64,000 nucleotides of DNA from an uncultured Burkholderiales bacterium (lineage in GTDB: Bacteria > Pseudomonadota > Gammaproteobacteria > Burkholderiales > Burkholderiaceae_C). The notes beneath the pieces are model-generated. The model worked only from the letters and a program-made list of their open reading frames with translations, ran no database searches and was not told the origin of the DNA. The translations under genes and the position numbers were made by a program. The stretch is taken from positions 18,032 to 82,031 of the forward strand of contig CBIHMU010000014.1 of assembly GCA_966211105.1 (NCBI GenBank). The letters run 5' to 3'. Below are positions 215 to 7,800 of the stretch, one piece after another (positions within the stretch are counted from its first letter, which is position 1; every line of letters starts with the position of its first letter).

Positions 215-3200
215 TCAGAGCAAGGGCGCGCTGCCGTTGCTCTCGTCGTCCTGGCGCCGCAGGGCGGAAAGCGCCGCGTGCGCCATGGCCGTGTGGGCGT
301 GGTCCGCCGTGTCTCCCGTGCTCGCCGGGCTCGCCGTGTTCGCCGCCTCCGTGGCAGGCGCGACCGCCGTGGACCCCGACGCGCTCTCGGCCAGCAGCGC
401 GTTCTCCGACGCCTTGGGCGCCGCGAGCAGTTCCGACGCCGCCGGCACCGTTGGGGGCGCACCGGCGTCTGTCGCCTTGGCGAACCAGACATCACCCATC
501 TGGTGCGTCACGCCGTCCGCGGTCTTGTAGCCGGAGATCAATCCGATCAAGTTGCCGTGGTCGACGGTCGAGCTCGACCGCGCGTTCAGGTCCAGTTCGA
601 CGATCCCCAGTTCCGCCAGCGACTTGAGTTCGCCGGCGTCGGTCTTGCCGTTGCCGTTCGCATCGGCCCAGATCCGCAACTGGCTGAAGCCCGCGTCAAG
701 GGCGTTCAACGCATGGTCGCCATTGGCGTCCATCGCCTGCATGGCCTCGTAGCCGTTGGCCGCATGCCTGCCGTTGGCCAGCACCGTGCCGGTGCCGAAG
801 AGCTCCGCGCCCGAGTCGATCTGCCCGTTGCCGTTGAGGTCGCGCGCCAGCAGGCCGTTGCCCTGCGCCATCCATCCCCATTGCTGGGCATGGCCGGTGT
901 TGTTCAAGTCGAAGCTGACGCCCTGCGCCGCAGACACCGTCCCGAGGCCGTGGCCGTCCAGGTTCAGCATGATCGGCGTGGCCAGGAACAGCGCGTCCAG
1001 CTGCGCGCCGGACATCGCATGGAGGGTCTCGGTGCTGAACGCCAGCACCTGGTCCATGCTGAGCGCGGCCAGGTCCCGGGTCTCGAAGCCGACGATCGCG
1101 TCGCTGCCGATGGCATGGATCTGGTCCACCGTCAGCGCCTTGGCCTGGTCGCGGCTGAGCGCCGTCAGGTCGTCGCTGGACATCGTGGCGAAGGCTTCGG
1201 ACGTGATCGCCGCCAACTGCTGCGTCGTCAGCGACGCGACCTGGCGGCTGTCCAGCGCCTCGATCGCGTCGGAGTTCATCGCCGCGATCGCCTCGGTGTG
1301 CAGCGCGCGCAGCGCCTGCGTGGTCAGGCCGTGGATCTGGTCCGAGCCCAGCGCGGCGAAGACCTCGGTCGACAGCGCGTTCAGCGTCGCCGTGCCCAGC
1401 ATGCGGAAGGCGCCTGAGGTCAACGCCGCGTAGTCCTCGGTGCCGAAGCCGCTCAATTGCGTACTCGTCATCTCGACCAGCTGCGTGCTGGTCATGGCGT
1501 GGACCTGGTCGGTGGACAGTGCCGCGAAGTCGCCGGCGTCCATCACGCGGATGGCCCTGCCGGGCAGCAGCGCCACATCCTGCGCGTCGAGCGCGGCGAT
1601 CTGGTCGCTGGTCCACGCCAGCACCTGGACATTCGTCAGGCCCAGGATCTGCGCCGTGCCCAGCGCCTGGATCTGGTCGGTGTGCATCGCCGCCGCCTGC
1701 TGGAAGCTCAGCGAGCCGACCTGGTCCGCCCGCAGCGCCGCGATCTGATCGGTGCTGAACAGGGCAATCTGATCCGAGCCCATCGCCTTCAACGCGGTGG
1801 TGTGCAGGACGGCGAGGTCCTGCGTCTCCAGCGCGGCGATCTGTGTGCCACTCAACGCGGCGAGCTGGGAGGAGCGCAAGGCCGCGAACTGCAGCGTCGT
1901 CAGCGCCGCCAGGGCCGTGGGATCCATGGCGGCGATCTGCAAGGAGGTCAGCGCGGCGATCTGTCTGGCCGACAGCGCGGCGATCTGGTCCAGGTCCAGC
2001 GACCCGAACTGGTCGCTGCTCAGTCCGAGCAGGGCCTGCGAGCCCAGGCTCGCGAGCTGCGCCGTGCTCAGGTGATCGATCTGGTCCGCCGTCAGGCCCA
2101 GCAACTGCTTCGAGCTCAGCGCCGCGAGTTGCGCGCTGCTCAACGAGGCGATGCTGTCGACGTTCATCGCACCCAGCTGGGCGGAGCTCAAGCCCAGCAG
2201 CGCGCGCGTGTTCAGGCCGACGACGTCCTGGAACTCCAGCTGATGGATCTGGTCCGTCGTGAATGCCGCAAGCTGCTTCGACGAGAAGACCGCGAACTGC
2301 GTCGAGTCCAGCGCGTTCAGGTCGGCCTGTTCCATCGCGGACAACTGGGCGGTCGTGAGCGACGCGAGCTGGTTGGTGCGCATCGCCGCGAACTGCTCCG
2401 GCACCAGGGCGTTGAGCTGGTCGGTGGTGAAGCTTTGCAGTGCCTGCACGGTGAAACCGCGCACGCCGTCGGTGGACAGCGCGTCGATCTGCGACGGTGC
2501 CAGCGCGGCGACCTGGCCGGTGCCCAGCAACGCCGTCTGCGCGCTGCCGAAGGCGCCGACCTGCTCGCGGCTCAGCACGTGGATCTGCTCGGTCGTCAAC
2601 GCCGTCAGGTACATCGGCTTGACGCCGGCGAGCAGTTCAGGCGCCAGGGCGCCGATCTCGTCGGTGGAGATCGCGGCCAGCTGGAACGAGGTCAGGGCCG
2701 CGAAGTGCTGTGATCCCAGCGCGTTGAAGCTGTCATGGTCGAGGCTGCGCACCTGGGCCGTGCTCAGCGCGGCGATCTGGCCGTCGCGCAGCGTGGCCAC
2801 GCCGAGCGGGCCCAGCGCGTCCAGCTGTTCGGCGCTCAGACCGCGGATCGCCAGCGTCGAGATCGCCTGCAAGGCCTGCGACGATAGCGCCGTCAACTGG
2901 TCGGCGGTCAGTGCGCCGACCTGCGCGGCATTGAGCGCCCCCGACTGCGAGGTGCTGAAGGCGGCCACCAGGGCGATGTCCAGCGCCTGCACCTGAGCGC
3001 TGCTCAGCGAGCGGATCACCGTCGCGTTCAGCGCGCCGAAGTCCTCGGGTTCGAGCTGCGAGACCTGCTCGGTCGTCAGCCCGCGGAACTGTGCGGAGGT
3101 GAAGGCGGCGAACTGCGAGGTCGTCAGCGCATTCAGGTCCTCCGGCGACATCGCCGCCAGCTGGGCCGTCGAGAGCGCGCGGATCTGGGCACTGCTGAGG

Positions 3201-4830: not shown

Positions 4831-7800
4831 TTAGATCAGCGGAGCAGCGCCGTTCTGGTCGTCTTCATGCAGCTTCTTGTAGGCCGCGCTCATGACGTCG
4901 TGGTTCACCGTGTCGGTGGCCGCGGCGGTGGTCGCCGCCGTGACCGCCGTCGCGGTGGACGCCGTGGCGCCTCCGAGCAGGTTGGCCTCCGGCTGGGCCA
5001 GCAGGTCGCCCAGGTGCGGGGTCGCCGCCGTCGCGTTGGTGGCCGTGTGCTGCGAGCCGTCCTTGGCGAACCACACGTCCGTCATCTCGTGCGAGGTGCC
5101 GTCCGACTTGGTGAAGCTGGACACCAGACCCAGCACGTTGCCGTGGTCGACGTCGGTGCCCTTGGTCGCGCCGAGGTTCAGGTCGGTGATGCCCAGGTCC
5201 GCCAGCGTCTTGAGCTCACCCGCGTCGGTCTTGCCGTCGTGGTTGGCGTCGACCCAGACCTGCAGCTTGCTGAAGTCCACGTCCTTCGCGTTGATGTGGC
5301 CGTCATGGTTCGTGTCCAGCGAGGCGAGGGCGGCGAAGCCGTCCAGGCCCTTGCGGCCGTTGACCGTGGTGCCGGCGCCGAAGAGCTCCGCACCGCTGTC
5401 GATCGAGCCGTTGCCGTTGCGATCCATCACCAGCAGGCCGTCGTTGCCGCCGACCCAGCCCCACTTGTCGTTGTGACCGGTGGCGTTCAGGTCGAAGTTC
5501 ACGCCTTGCGCCGCGGACACCGTCTGGATGCCGTTGCCGTCCAGGTCCAGCACGATCGGCGAGGCCAGGAACAGCGCGTTGGTCTGCTCACCGGTGAAGC
5601 CGGCCGTCTGGTCGGACGTCATCGCCAGCACCTGCTGCATGTTCATGCTGGCCAGGTCCTGCGTGTCCCAGCCGATGAACTGGTCGGACGTCATCGCCAC
5701 GATCTGGTCCGTCGACAGACCTTGCACCTGGATCGAGGTCAGGGCGTGGATGTCGCTGGAATCCAGCGCCAGGATCTGGTCCGTCGTGAAGGCGTGCATC
5801 TGCGTCGAGGTCAGCGTCGCGAAGTGCGTGCTGGTCATCGATGCGATGTCCTCGGTCGACAGGGCCGCGATCTGGTCCGTGCCCAGCGAGCGCAGTTGCG
5901 CCGTGCTGAATTCATGGACCTGGTCGCTGGTCAGCGCCGCGATCTGGTCGGTGTTGAACGCATGCAGGGCGGTCGTGCTCAGCGCATGGATGCCGTCGGT
6001 GGTGATCGACGCGATGTCGGCGGTCTCGATGCCGGCCACCTGCGTCGCACCCACGGCGCTCCACTGCTGCGAGGTCAGCGCGTGGATCTGATCCGAGGTG
6101 AAGGCCTCGAAGTCGGCGGAGCCGAAGGCCACCATGTTCGCGCTGCTGATCGCCGCGAGGTCGCCGGAGTCGATCGCCTGCACCTGGTCGGTCGTGAAGG
6201 CGTGCAACTGGGCCGAGCTCATCGACACGATCTGCTGCGAGGTCAGCGCCTGCACGTCGTCGGTGGCCATCTGGCTCACCTGCAGCGTGCTCAGCGCGCC
6301 GATCTGCTGTGTCGTCAGCGCGGCGATCTGGTTGCTGTCCAGGGCTTCCAGCTGCGCGCTGTCCAGCGAACGGATCGCCAGCGTGCTCAGGCTGCGCAGG
6401 TCACCCGTCTCGAAGGCCGCCATCTGGTCGGTCGTCAGGCCGTCCACCTGCGCCGAGGTCAGCGCCGCCGTCTGCGACGAGCTCAGCGCCACGATCGCAT
6501 CCGTGCTCAGGGCGCCGATCTGGGCCGAACCGAAGGCCTGCAGCTGCGTGGAGCTCAACGCGGCGACGTCGTCCGTCGTCATCGTCGAGATCTGCGCGGT
6601 CGTCAGGGCCTGCAGCTGGGTGTTGCTCAGCGAGCGGATCTGGCCGCTGGTCAGCGCGTTCAGGTCGTCGCTGGTCAGGTTGGCGATCTGGGCGGTCGTC
6701 AGCGAGGCGACCTGCAGCGTCGTCAGTGCGGCGATCTGGTTGCTGTCGAGCGCTTCGATCTGATCGGTGCCGAGGGCGCGCAGGGCGGTCGTCGACAGGG
6801 CGCGCAGATCCGCGGTCTCCATCGCGGCCATCTGGTCCGTCGTCAGGCCCTTGACCTGCGCCGAGGACAGCGCGGCCACCTGGCCGGAGGTCAGCGCGAT
6901 GACCGAATCGGTGCTCAGCGCGCCGATCTGGGCCGAGCTGAACGCCTGGACCTGCTGCGAGGACAGCGCGGCCACGTCGTTGCTCTCCATCGCGGAGACC
7001 TGCGCCGTGGTCAGCGCGGCGACCTGCTGCGTCGTCAGCGCCTTGACCTGCGCGCTGGTCAGCGCGTTCAGGTCGTCGGAGGTCAGGTTGCTCACCTGGC
7101 CGGTCGTCAGCGCGGCGACCTGCTGGGTCGTCAGCGCGGCGACCTGGTCGGAGCCGAGCGCCGCCAGCTGGTCACTGGTCAGGGCGCGCAGGGCCACGGT
7201 CGACAGGGCCTTCAGATCCCCCGTCTCGATGGCGCCCATCTGGTCCGTCGTCAGGCCGGCGACCTGCTTGCTGGTCAGCGCGGCGACCTGCACCGAGCTC
7301 AGCGCCACGACCGCGTCGGTCGTCAGGGCGCCGACCTGGTCGGAGCTCAGCGCCGCGACCTGATTGGTCGCCAGCGCGGCCACGTCCGCGGTCTCCATCG
7401 TCGACACCTGCGCCGTCGTCAGCGCGGCCACCTGGGCGGTGCTCAAAGCCTTGATCTGCGCGCTGGTCAGGGCGTTCAGGTCGTCGGAGCCCAGGTTGCT
7501 GATCTGGCCGGTCGTCAACGCGGCGACCTGCTGGGTCGTCAGCGCGGCGATCTGGTTGCTGTCGAGCGCTTCCAGTTCGGCCGAAGTCAGCGACGCCACC
7601 TGACCCGTGGTCAGGGCGCGCAGCTGGCCGGTCGTCAGCGCGGCGAAGTCGTCGGTGGCGAACTGGCTGATCTGGCCCGTCGTCAGCGAAGCCACCTGGG
7701 CAGTGGTGAGCGCTTCGACCTGGTCGGAGCTCAGCGCCTGCAGCTGGTCGCTGGTCAGGGCGCGCAGGGCGACCGTGGACAGCGACTTCAGGTCACCGCT

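Follow-up and report, generated by a model that had tools for sequence, protein, structure and literature searches.

A Ser/Thr-Pro branch of the FrpC self-processing module closes giant ALTTAQ repeat proteins and is probably a calcium folding cap for export rather than a cutter

Introduction

The self-processing module (SPM) is known from FrpC/FrpA and ApxIVA and is the basis of self-excising tags and of NeissLock. The papers searched describe it only as a cutter of Asp-Pro bonds in repeats-in-toxin (RTX) proteins (PMC7078468, PMC7846742, PMC12538545, PMC3034196), and it has been called exclusive to such proteins (PMC7078468). The present analysis concerns two SPM-like domains in which the residue before the proline is Ser or Thr, located at the C-terminal ends of two giant repeat proteins, P0001 and P0002, of an uncultured Burkholderiales bacterium. 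Their genes lie in a 64,000-nucleotide stretch of contig CBIHMU010000014.1 (positions 18,032 to 82,031, assembly GCA_966211105.1), and this whole stretch is called the window throughout. The Ser/Thr (S/T) form is a large, strictly conserved and hitherto undescribed branch of the SPM family, and probably acts as a calcium folding cap for export rather than as a cutter.

The FrpC module lacks order until Ca2+ is bound, its folding being cooperative with a dissociation constant (Kd) of ~150 µM; D414, D478 and D579 make up a transient fifth Ca2+ site, the proposed twister of the scissile amide, and D478A strongly reduces cleavage, with D579A abolishing it (PMC7078468). The substitution D414A likewise abolishes cleavage (PMC7846742), in agreement with the statement of an earlier sequence-only reading of this DNA that the Asp is required. 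Substrates of type I secretion systems (T1SS) exit C-terminus first and fold on extracellular Ca2+, RTX substrates folding from the C- to the N-terminus (PMC7078468). The searchable SPM papers mention neither non-Asp nor C-terminal forms of the module, nor ALTTAQ proteins, and literature searches on ALTTAQ, on non-Asp SPM variants and on fibre links in Leptothrix and Sphaerotilus found nothing relevant.

Results

A homologue of the FrpC module at the end of two ALTTAQ proteins

Two tandem minus-strand genes, P0001 (215..4711, 1498 aa) and, upstream of it, P0002 (4831..14322, 3163 aa), make up the left 14.3 kb of the window. Both proteins consist almost entirely of ALTTAQ repeats, tandem 38-aa units that a Pfam scan assigns to PF20080 (ALTTAQ_rpt; E=1e-218 and 39 stretches in P0001, E=0 and 100 stretches in P0002), and they are textbook members of that family. 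The repeats begin at the outset of each protein, P0001 starting with MATFDVGSLTPEE, and neither N-terminus has a signal peptide-like segment. The repeats give way to a non-repeat domain of ~170 aa, which is followed by a low-complexity tail of 75-86 residues. The domain spans T1245-K1412 in P0001 (476..979, minus strand) and S2921-K3087 in P0002 (5062..5562, minus strand), and the genome holds exactly these two copies. Because GC content at third codon positions (GC3) reaches 0.93 in P0001 and 0.96 in P0002, the minus-strand frames are taken as the coding ones; plus-strand open reading frames of high GC3 at window 5477-6763 and 4867-14298 were set aside as shadow frames of the GC-rich repeats, not genes.

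The domain is a true homologue of the FrpC SPM, beyond motif resemblance, since matches by sequence and by predicted fold lead to the same structures. A phmmer search of the PDB with the P0001 C-terminus had the FrpC SPM as its sole matches (6SJW_A, E=8.3e-37; 6SJX_A, E=4.8e-36); the alignment with 6SJW_A runs end to end (query 9-174 against chain residues 1-169) and puts the proline of the domain on FrpC P415. This search was made with the P0001 domain, to which the P0002 domain is linked by 58% identity. An AF2 model of the P0001 junction and domain, built from 63 sequences, reached a mean predicted local distance difference test score (pLDDT) of 91.7 and a predicted template modelling score (pTM) of 0.88. 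Compared with the PDB by Foldseek, the model found only 6SJW and 6SJX (template modelling scores, TM, of 0.81 and 0.79; both E<=1e-15, best E 3.5e-17), the next matches having E>1. As in the FrpC module, to which the domain is 43-45% identical, two perpendicular beta-sheets are formed and the N- and C-terminal strands are paired; for the P0002 domain the AF2 pLDDT is 92-98. The local Pfam and NCBIfam libraries contain no model matching the SPM-like domain, for which the family label PF26745 is found only in precomputed annotation. The sequence-only reading had pointed to the FrpC SPM from motifs, and this resemblance holds both by alignment and by fold; the coordinates it gave are exact, and all the motifs it listed are present.

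A difference from FrpC lies at the opening of the domain, which reads ...DALFLA-T1245-P1246-IMLNLDGHG in P0001 and ...NALFLA-S2921-P-IVLDLDGNG in P0002. Both junctions align to the scissile Asp414-Pro415 of FrpC: Thr1245-Pro1246 (ACG CCx) occupies 974..979 on the minus strand, with the Thr codon ACG at 979-977, and Ser2921-Pro2922 (TCG CCx) occupies 5557..5562 on the same strand, with the Ser codon TCG at 5562-5560. The replacement of Asp-Pro by LAT-P and LAS-P, already pointed out from the letters of the window, is thereby confirmed to the codon. The P0001 domain ends with ...MGDVWFAK at nt 476, and that of P0002 at nt 5062. P0001 and P0002 each contain 0 G[GAS]xGxD motifs and give no PF00353 match, which agrees with the earlier description of a C-terminal module without RTX repeats behind it.

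These proteins share with FrpC the format of a very large carrier without a signal peptide, probably exported by a T1SS. Their architecture is otherwise unlike that of FrpC, in which cargo precedes the module on the N-terminal side and an RTX block follows it; here it is the last folded domain, RTX repeats are absent and the passenger is an ALTTAQ repeat fibre.

Calcium sites kept and Asp-specific parts lost

When the domain is compared with FrpC, with residue roles taken from Kuban et al. 2020 (PMC7078468), all three EF-hand-like Ca2+ loops are found in both P0001 and P0002, with every ligand position kept. In P0001 they are, on the minus strand, loop 1 (DLNGNGQIDSGAE, 803..841; FrpC D462-E474), loop 2 (DANGDHALNALD, 695..730; FrpC D499-D511) and loop 3 (DANGNGKTDAGE, 629..664; FrpC D521-E532), the last preceded by W1348, which corresponds to FrpC W519. 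Both proteins also retain the opening Pro and equivalents of the T-shaped Trp pair (W451/W519), of the narrow-port residues (W451, L475, G477, G491) and of D579, which in P0001 is Asp1407 (491..493, minus strand). A fourth, incomplete Ca2+ site of FrpC (D419, D421, D423, G424 and D456) reads D, D, N, G, D in P0002, where it is intact, but N, D, H, G, N in P0001, where it is weakened.

Two acidic residues have changed. FrpC D414 is replaced by Thr in P0001 and Ser in P0002, and FrpC D478 by Thr in P0001 (Thr1307, 791..793, minus strand) and Ala in P0002, which precludes both an aspartic anhydride and the transient fifth Ca2+ site. The same pairing is seen in the wider family, where Asp occupies the 478 position in 20 of 44 Asp-Pro copies versus 1 of 156 S/T copies (Fisher p=2e-14). 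The two Asp-specific parts, the Asp before the proline and the Asp at 478, are lost together in S/T copies.

The remainder of the site is strongly conserved. In an alignment of 63 clade members, with ~30 invariant columns at 50-84% identity, the Trp pair, the port residues, the D579 equivalent (D192 in this alignment) and most Ca2+ ligands are invariant, and the other ligands are nearly so. In every clade, conservation at the ligand positions amounts to 81-100%, with at least 98% for the Asp that opens loop 1 and the Glu that closes it. A separate observation concerns His188 (THxMADVWF; residue 188 of the model, which covers window 437-1066), which lies 3-4 residues before the D579 equivalent and is nearly invariant in the C-terminal S/T clade; the position is His in 59% of a wider C-terminal sample and mostly Gly in Asp-Pro and tandem copies.

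Ser or Thr before the proline as the rule of a large clade

A scan of Sphaerotilaceae, in which a single genome represented each species, gave 76 loci. They belong to Roseateles/Mitsuaria (up to 96% identity, placing the bacterium of the window in Roseateles), Paucibacter, Pelomonas, Rhizobacter, Aquabacterium, Ideonella, Sphaerotilus, Leptothrix, Methylibium and Derxia. The domain is carried by 41 of the 151 sampled genomes of the family and kept across at least 76 species, and the tandem P0001-P0002 pair is preserved in the Roseateles relatives L010-L023. Every one of the 100 Sphaerotilaceae domain instances reads Thr-Pro or Ser-Pro, always 222-290 aa from the stop codon, and in all carriers sampled the C-terminus of the ALTTAQ proteins is made up of an S/T-Pro SPM-like module and, behind it, a conserved tail. 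A tree of 99 instances, computed with the column of the residue before the proline (P1) left out, shows 16 interchanges between Ser and Thr and no other residue. Ala and Pro, each one mutation away from ACG or TCG, never occur at P1 in the 100 instances. Taken together with the 16 interchanges, this absence marks P1 as being under purifying selection for a beta-hydroxyl residue, not drifting.

The wider family was surveyed by a HMMER pass over 1.84 billion representative proteins, which at E<=1e-3 yielded 22,753 clusters at 50% identity. The census of P1 rests on 367 domain instances, taken from the 150 best of these 22,753 cluster matches together with 68 word-search matches; the residue before the proline was Ser in 86 of them, Thr in 59, Asp in 47, Ala in 42 and Pro in 41. 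For the analysis of position and phylogeny 301 instances were sampled. Asp-Pro copies among them mostly lie upstream of RTX blocks (35 of 44), which is the FrpC architecture. Ser/Thr-Pro copies mostly come last among the domains of their protein and are not followed by RTX (98 of 139). The 83 tandem internal copies with Pro, Ala or Leu at P1 belong to a group that is mostly internal, arranged in sets of 2-4 tandem copies near the C-terminus of RTX adhesin-like proteins of 3,000-7,700 aa, and in which the port is also remodelled (ELFG to EISF). A restriction of P1 to Ser, Thr, Cys, Asp or Glu thus holds for copies with an FrpC-like port but does not extend to the whole family.

On the tree of 301, single copies at the C-terminus group together in one clade with 80 members (79 S/T, 1 Cys). 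The passengers in this clade are ALTTAQ repeats in 42 members and unrelated repeats (cadherin-like, SdrD-B-like, Big) in the other 38; where a protein has just one, C-terminal copy, it contains 0-2 RTX-like motifs. A column-by-column comparison of the Asp-Pro and S/T groups shows equal conservation except at P1. Asp-Pro is a minority state among the sampled relatives, tied to the pre-RTX position, and the S/T form, far from being peculiar to P0001 and P0002, is invariant throughout a large clade of C-terminal modules. The sequence-only reading had allowed that such a variant might already be described as common and inert; by the census it is indeed common, and no paper describing it was found.

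Giant RTX adhesin-like proteins of 3,300-7,700 aa (P0086-P0092, P0095, P0105, P0119, P0141) have a layout of their own, with an N-proximal Asp-Pro SPM at residue ~700-900 and two further non-Asp SPM-like copies at the extreme C-terminus. Such proteins presumably combine a cleaving module with non-cleaving ones in a single chain.

Conserved tails and a link to type I secretion

The segments behind the domain are alike in all orthologues compared. About 95 tails share an LxDLLAxPxxxLL motif (core LxDLLAxP), an acidic patch (DDD) 8-12 residues from the end and a PL[IL]-COOH terminus. The 86-aa tail of P0001 (218..475, minus strand), a putative type I secretion signal, has an ELLAAP motif and an acidic patch and ends ...NGSAPLL-COOH; that of P0002 (76 aa, 4834..5061, minus strand) contains LGDLLAQP, ends HEDDQNGAAPLI-COOH and is predicted by AF2 to be disordered with short helices. 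T1SS signals are usually disordered with short helices, and this set of tail features is a candidate recognition signal for a T1SS of the LssB type.

A candidate exporter is found elsewhere in the genome. Contig C118 carries a cluster (L087:1916-9335) of a TPR-GT41 gene, an ATP-binding cassette (ABC) transporter, a T1SS adaptor (membrane fusion protein, MFP) and a TolC-like gene, the transporter matching TIGR03375, the LssB type, at 776 bits and the adaptor TIGR01843, both above cut-off. Among the 76 loci of relatives, up to 18 have orthologues of this cluster within 10 kb of the ALTTAQ-SPM gene, a figure that includes several single-component matches at locus edges and two short fragments (L039, L074). 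The orthologues are on the same strand and upstream of the ALTTAQ-SPM gene in L070, on the same strand and downstream in Leptothrix (L082) and Sphaerotilus (L041), and convergent to it in R. violae (L031), whose ABC protein is 80% identical to that of C118. Because of this linkage in relatives and the conserved tail features, P0001 and P0002 are taken as likely T1SS substrates. Three T1SS adaptor genes elsewhere in the genome, together with the linkage in relatives, rule out the idea that the bacterium has no T1SS.

A HlyD-like gene inside the window (22435-23760) was considered as a T1SS adaptor and rejected, as it is part of a resistance-nodulation-division (RND) efflux pair of the AcrB family (22435-27014, plus strand). 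Contig C131 (L086:3-11726) encodes a protein with a Peptidase_C80 domain (MARTX-type cysteine protease), which the contig end truncates and of which more than 2597 aa are present; its gene immediately precedes those for a C39-type ABC transporter and a T1SS adaptor, and the locus is that of a second, different T1SS substrate.

Neighbouring genes

Directly downstream of P0001 on the minus strand lies the gene for P0003 (1129 aa), which covers window 1-214 and extends beyond the left edge (L003:14859-18245). P0003 has no Pfam or NCBIfam match, and among the closest Roseateles loci only 6 share it, at 47-80% identity. It is followed by glycosyltransferase genes (GT4 and DUF5672), which are kept in 14 Roseateles loci. 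Another glycosyltransferase, the O-GlcNAc-transferase-like TPR-GT41, adjoins a T1SS or ALTTAQ gene in 11 loci; it lies in an LssB-type T1SS cluster or directly after an ALTTAQ-SPM gene in C118, L031, L036, L038, L041, L045, L070, L082 and L084. The constancy of TPR-GT41 at these genes suggests that the Ser/Thr-rich ALTTAQ repeats may be glycosylated in the cytoplasm before type I export.

Discussion

On balance, the SPM-like domain of P0001 and P0002 is read here as a non-cleaving, Ca2+-triggered folding cap that replaces the RTX block just before the T1SS signal, an explanation held with a confidence only slightly better than even. Its role as folding nucleus or ratchet is proposed because an SPM fold with intact Ca2+ loops sits at the place of the RTX block, directly before the tail, in proteins devoid of RTX repeats. 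The module would be unfolded in the low-Ca2+ cytosol and, as the first globular part to emerge from the secretion duct, would bind 3-4 Ca2+ ions and snap into the SPM fold. Once folded, it could serve as an extracellular folding nucleus, stopper and ratchet, the job done by the RTX beta-roll in classical substrates. No cutting is expected, because an anhydride cannot arise from Ser or Thr and the fifth Ca2+ site, specific to Asp, has been lost; with Thr or Ser in place of Asp414 there would be no clip-and-link step, and the module would stay attached. Asx/ST turns before proline offer a basis for the retention of a hydroxyl at this position: Ser or Thr may act as an isostere, kept for an Asx/ST-type turn through the narrow port without the labile chemistry. 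For P0001 and P0002 we thus infer Ca2+-dependent folding of the domain, secretion via the C118 T1SS, a ratchet role and the absence of cleavage.

The RTX beta-roll with its capping structure, as found in CyaA, HlyA, proteases and lipases, resembles such a module in its position directly upstream of an uncleaved C-terminal secretion signal. Disorder without Ca2+, extracellular folding on Ca2+ and action as a folding nucleus or ratchet are proposed as further common features. In construction the two are unlike each other: the module here is a globular EF-hand-like beta-sandwich and a single cooperative unit, whereas RTX is a parallel beta-roll and a repeat array, and a ratchet function, for the module, would be the suggested part of the parallel.

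Several observations weigh against a folding cap. The strict S/T(C) rule at P1 and the conserved port and D579 exceed the needs of a generic cap and are not fully explained by it. The sole exception in the 80-member clade is Cys, and Ser, Thr and Cys are the classic nucleophiles of autoproteolysis; conservation of the port and of D579, the parts of FrpC that surround the scissile bond and put it under strain, equals that in Asp-Pro copies. In 21 instances S-Pro copies lie upstream of RTX blocks, where the role of a C-terminal cap is inapplicable. Neither the window nor the 18 kb to the left of it holds a T1SS gene, and Ca2+ binding, folding, secretion and lack of cleavage are, for the domain of P0001 and P0002, predictions from sequence and homology.

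The first of these points would be met by a module that is still active with another nucleophile. Here folding on Ca2+ would strain the junction and the side chain of Ser or Thr, rarely Cys, would attack a backbone carbonyl, most plausibly as an N-to-O acyl shift at the bond before Ser/Thr; a beta-lactone formed via its own twisted Ser/Thr-Pro amide is far less likely. The resulting ester would be hydrolysed or captured by an amine, and the ALTTAQ fibre would be freed from the module and tail or covalently linked to a partner. The restriction of P1 to S/T/C in the C-terminal clade, the 100 of 100 Sphaerotilaceae instances with their 16 interchanges and the preservation of the FrpC active geometry (Pro, port, D579 and Ca2+ sites) as strongly as in Asp-Pro copies are consistent with such chemistry, as are the S-Pro copies in FrpC-like pre-RTX positions and the fact that the clades without a polar P1, the Pro/Ala/Leu-Pro tandem copies, have also remodelled the port. 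A parallel exists in SEA, GPS/GAIN, Nup98, Ntn hydrolases, inteins and Hedgehog, where a conserved Ser/Thr/Cys sits at a strained junction and folding strain leads to an N-to-O acyl shift. In those proteins, however, the nucleophile is P1' of the scissile bond, whereas here the hydroxyl is at P1 of the bond strained in FrpC; they have no sequence or fold relationship to the module, and cleavage in it is hypothetical. From P1 no favourable five-membered ring is available for attack on the 414-415 bond, which would need a four-membered ring, and the 413-414 (P2-P1) bond lies outside the port, has no known strain and begins with a variable P2 (A, S, V, T, K, I). The fifth Ca2+ site, the proposed amide twister, has lost two of its three acidic ligands, and the literature searched holds no experimental precedent. 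His188 was considered as a general base for Ser/Thr and is unsupported in that role, as strand register in the model would pair it with residue ~35 and not with P1. An active module is for these reasons regarded as unlikely.

Somewhat less probable still is that the domain serves mainly as a Ca2+-dependent binding or anchoring module, tethering the fibre by its C-terminus to the cell envelope, to exopolysaccharide or to a second fibre, with the Ser/Thr as a modification site (for example, for O-glycosylation by the co-encoded glycosyltransferases) and no backbone chemistry. Glycosyltransferases are consistently linked to these genes (GT4 and DUF5672 downstream in 14 Roseateles loci, TPR-GT41 in 11 loci), but the Ser/Thr-rich ALTTAQ repeats explain them at least equally well, and P1 in FrpC lies buried at the port, where it would be a poor target for a transferase once the protein has folded (PMC7078468). 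The C-terminal module occurs on many unrelated passengers (cadherin-like, SdrD-B-like, Big), as a generic anchor would, and in giant RTX adhesin-like proteins 2-3 copies are found at the distal, C-terminal end; anchoring overlaps with a folding cap and is compatible with it. As for a decayed, functionless remnant of a once-cleaving FrpC-type SPM, the missing catalytic Asp and D478 might suggest one, but the conservation data exclude it and leave its probability close to nil: the 63 sequences at 50-84% identity retain ~30 invariant columns, the domain is kept in both paralogues, themselves 58% identical in it, at least 76 species have it, as do 41 of the 151 genomes sampled in the family, and P1 is under clear purifying selection. 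The two readings left standing, a non-cleaving Ca2+-triggered folding switch or cap and a different chemistry, are the same two at which the sequence-only reading had arrived.

New for the PF20080 family are the S/T-Pro SPM-like C-terminus with its conserved tail and the linkage to an LssB-type T1SS and to glycosyltransferases. If the module is a non-cleaving Ca2+ folding cap, type I secretion would have a second, non-RTX solution to the problem of folding on exit, and SPM engineering would have in the clade a natural, stable control scaffold that Ca2+ can switch. If the module is active instead, the SPM fold would host a second, undescribed Ca2+-triggered self-processing chemistry, in which an ester or another hydroxyl-derived intermediate replaces the aspartic anhydride; judged by the closest relatives, this chemistry would outnumber the aspartic one in this branch of the family and would provide a genetically encoded, Ca2+-inducible ligation handle alongside NeissLock. 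Under either reading, the ALTTAQ proteins of Sphaerotilaceae gain a probable secretion route and a testable architecture.

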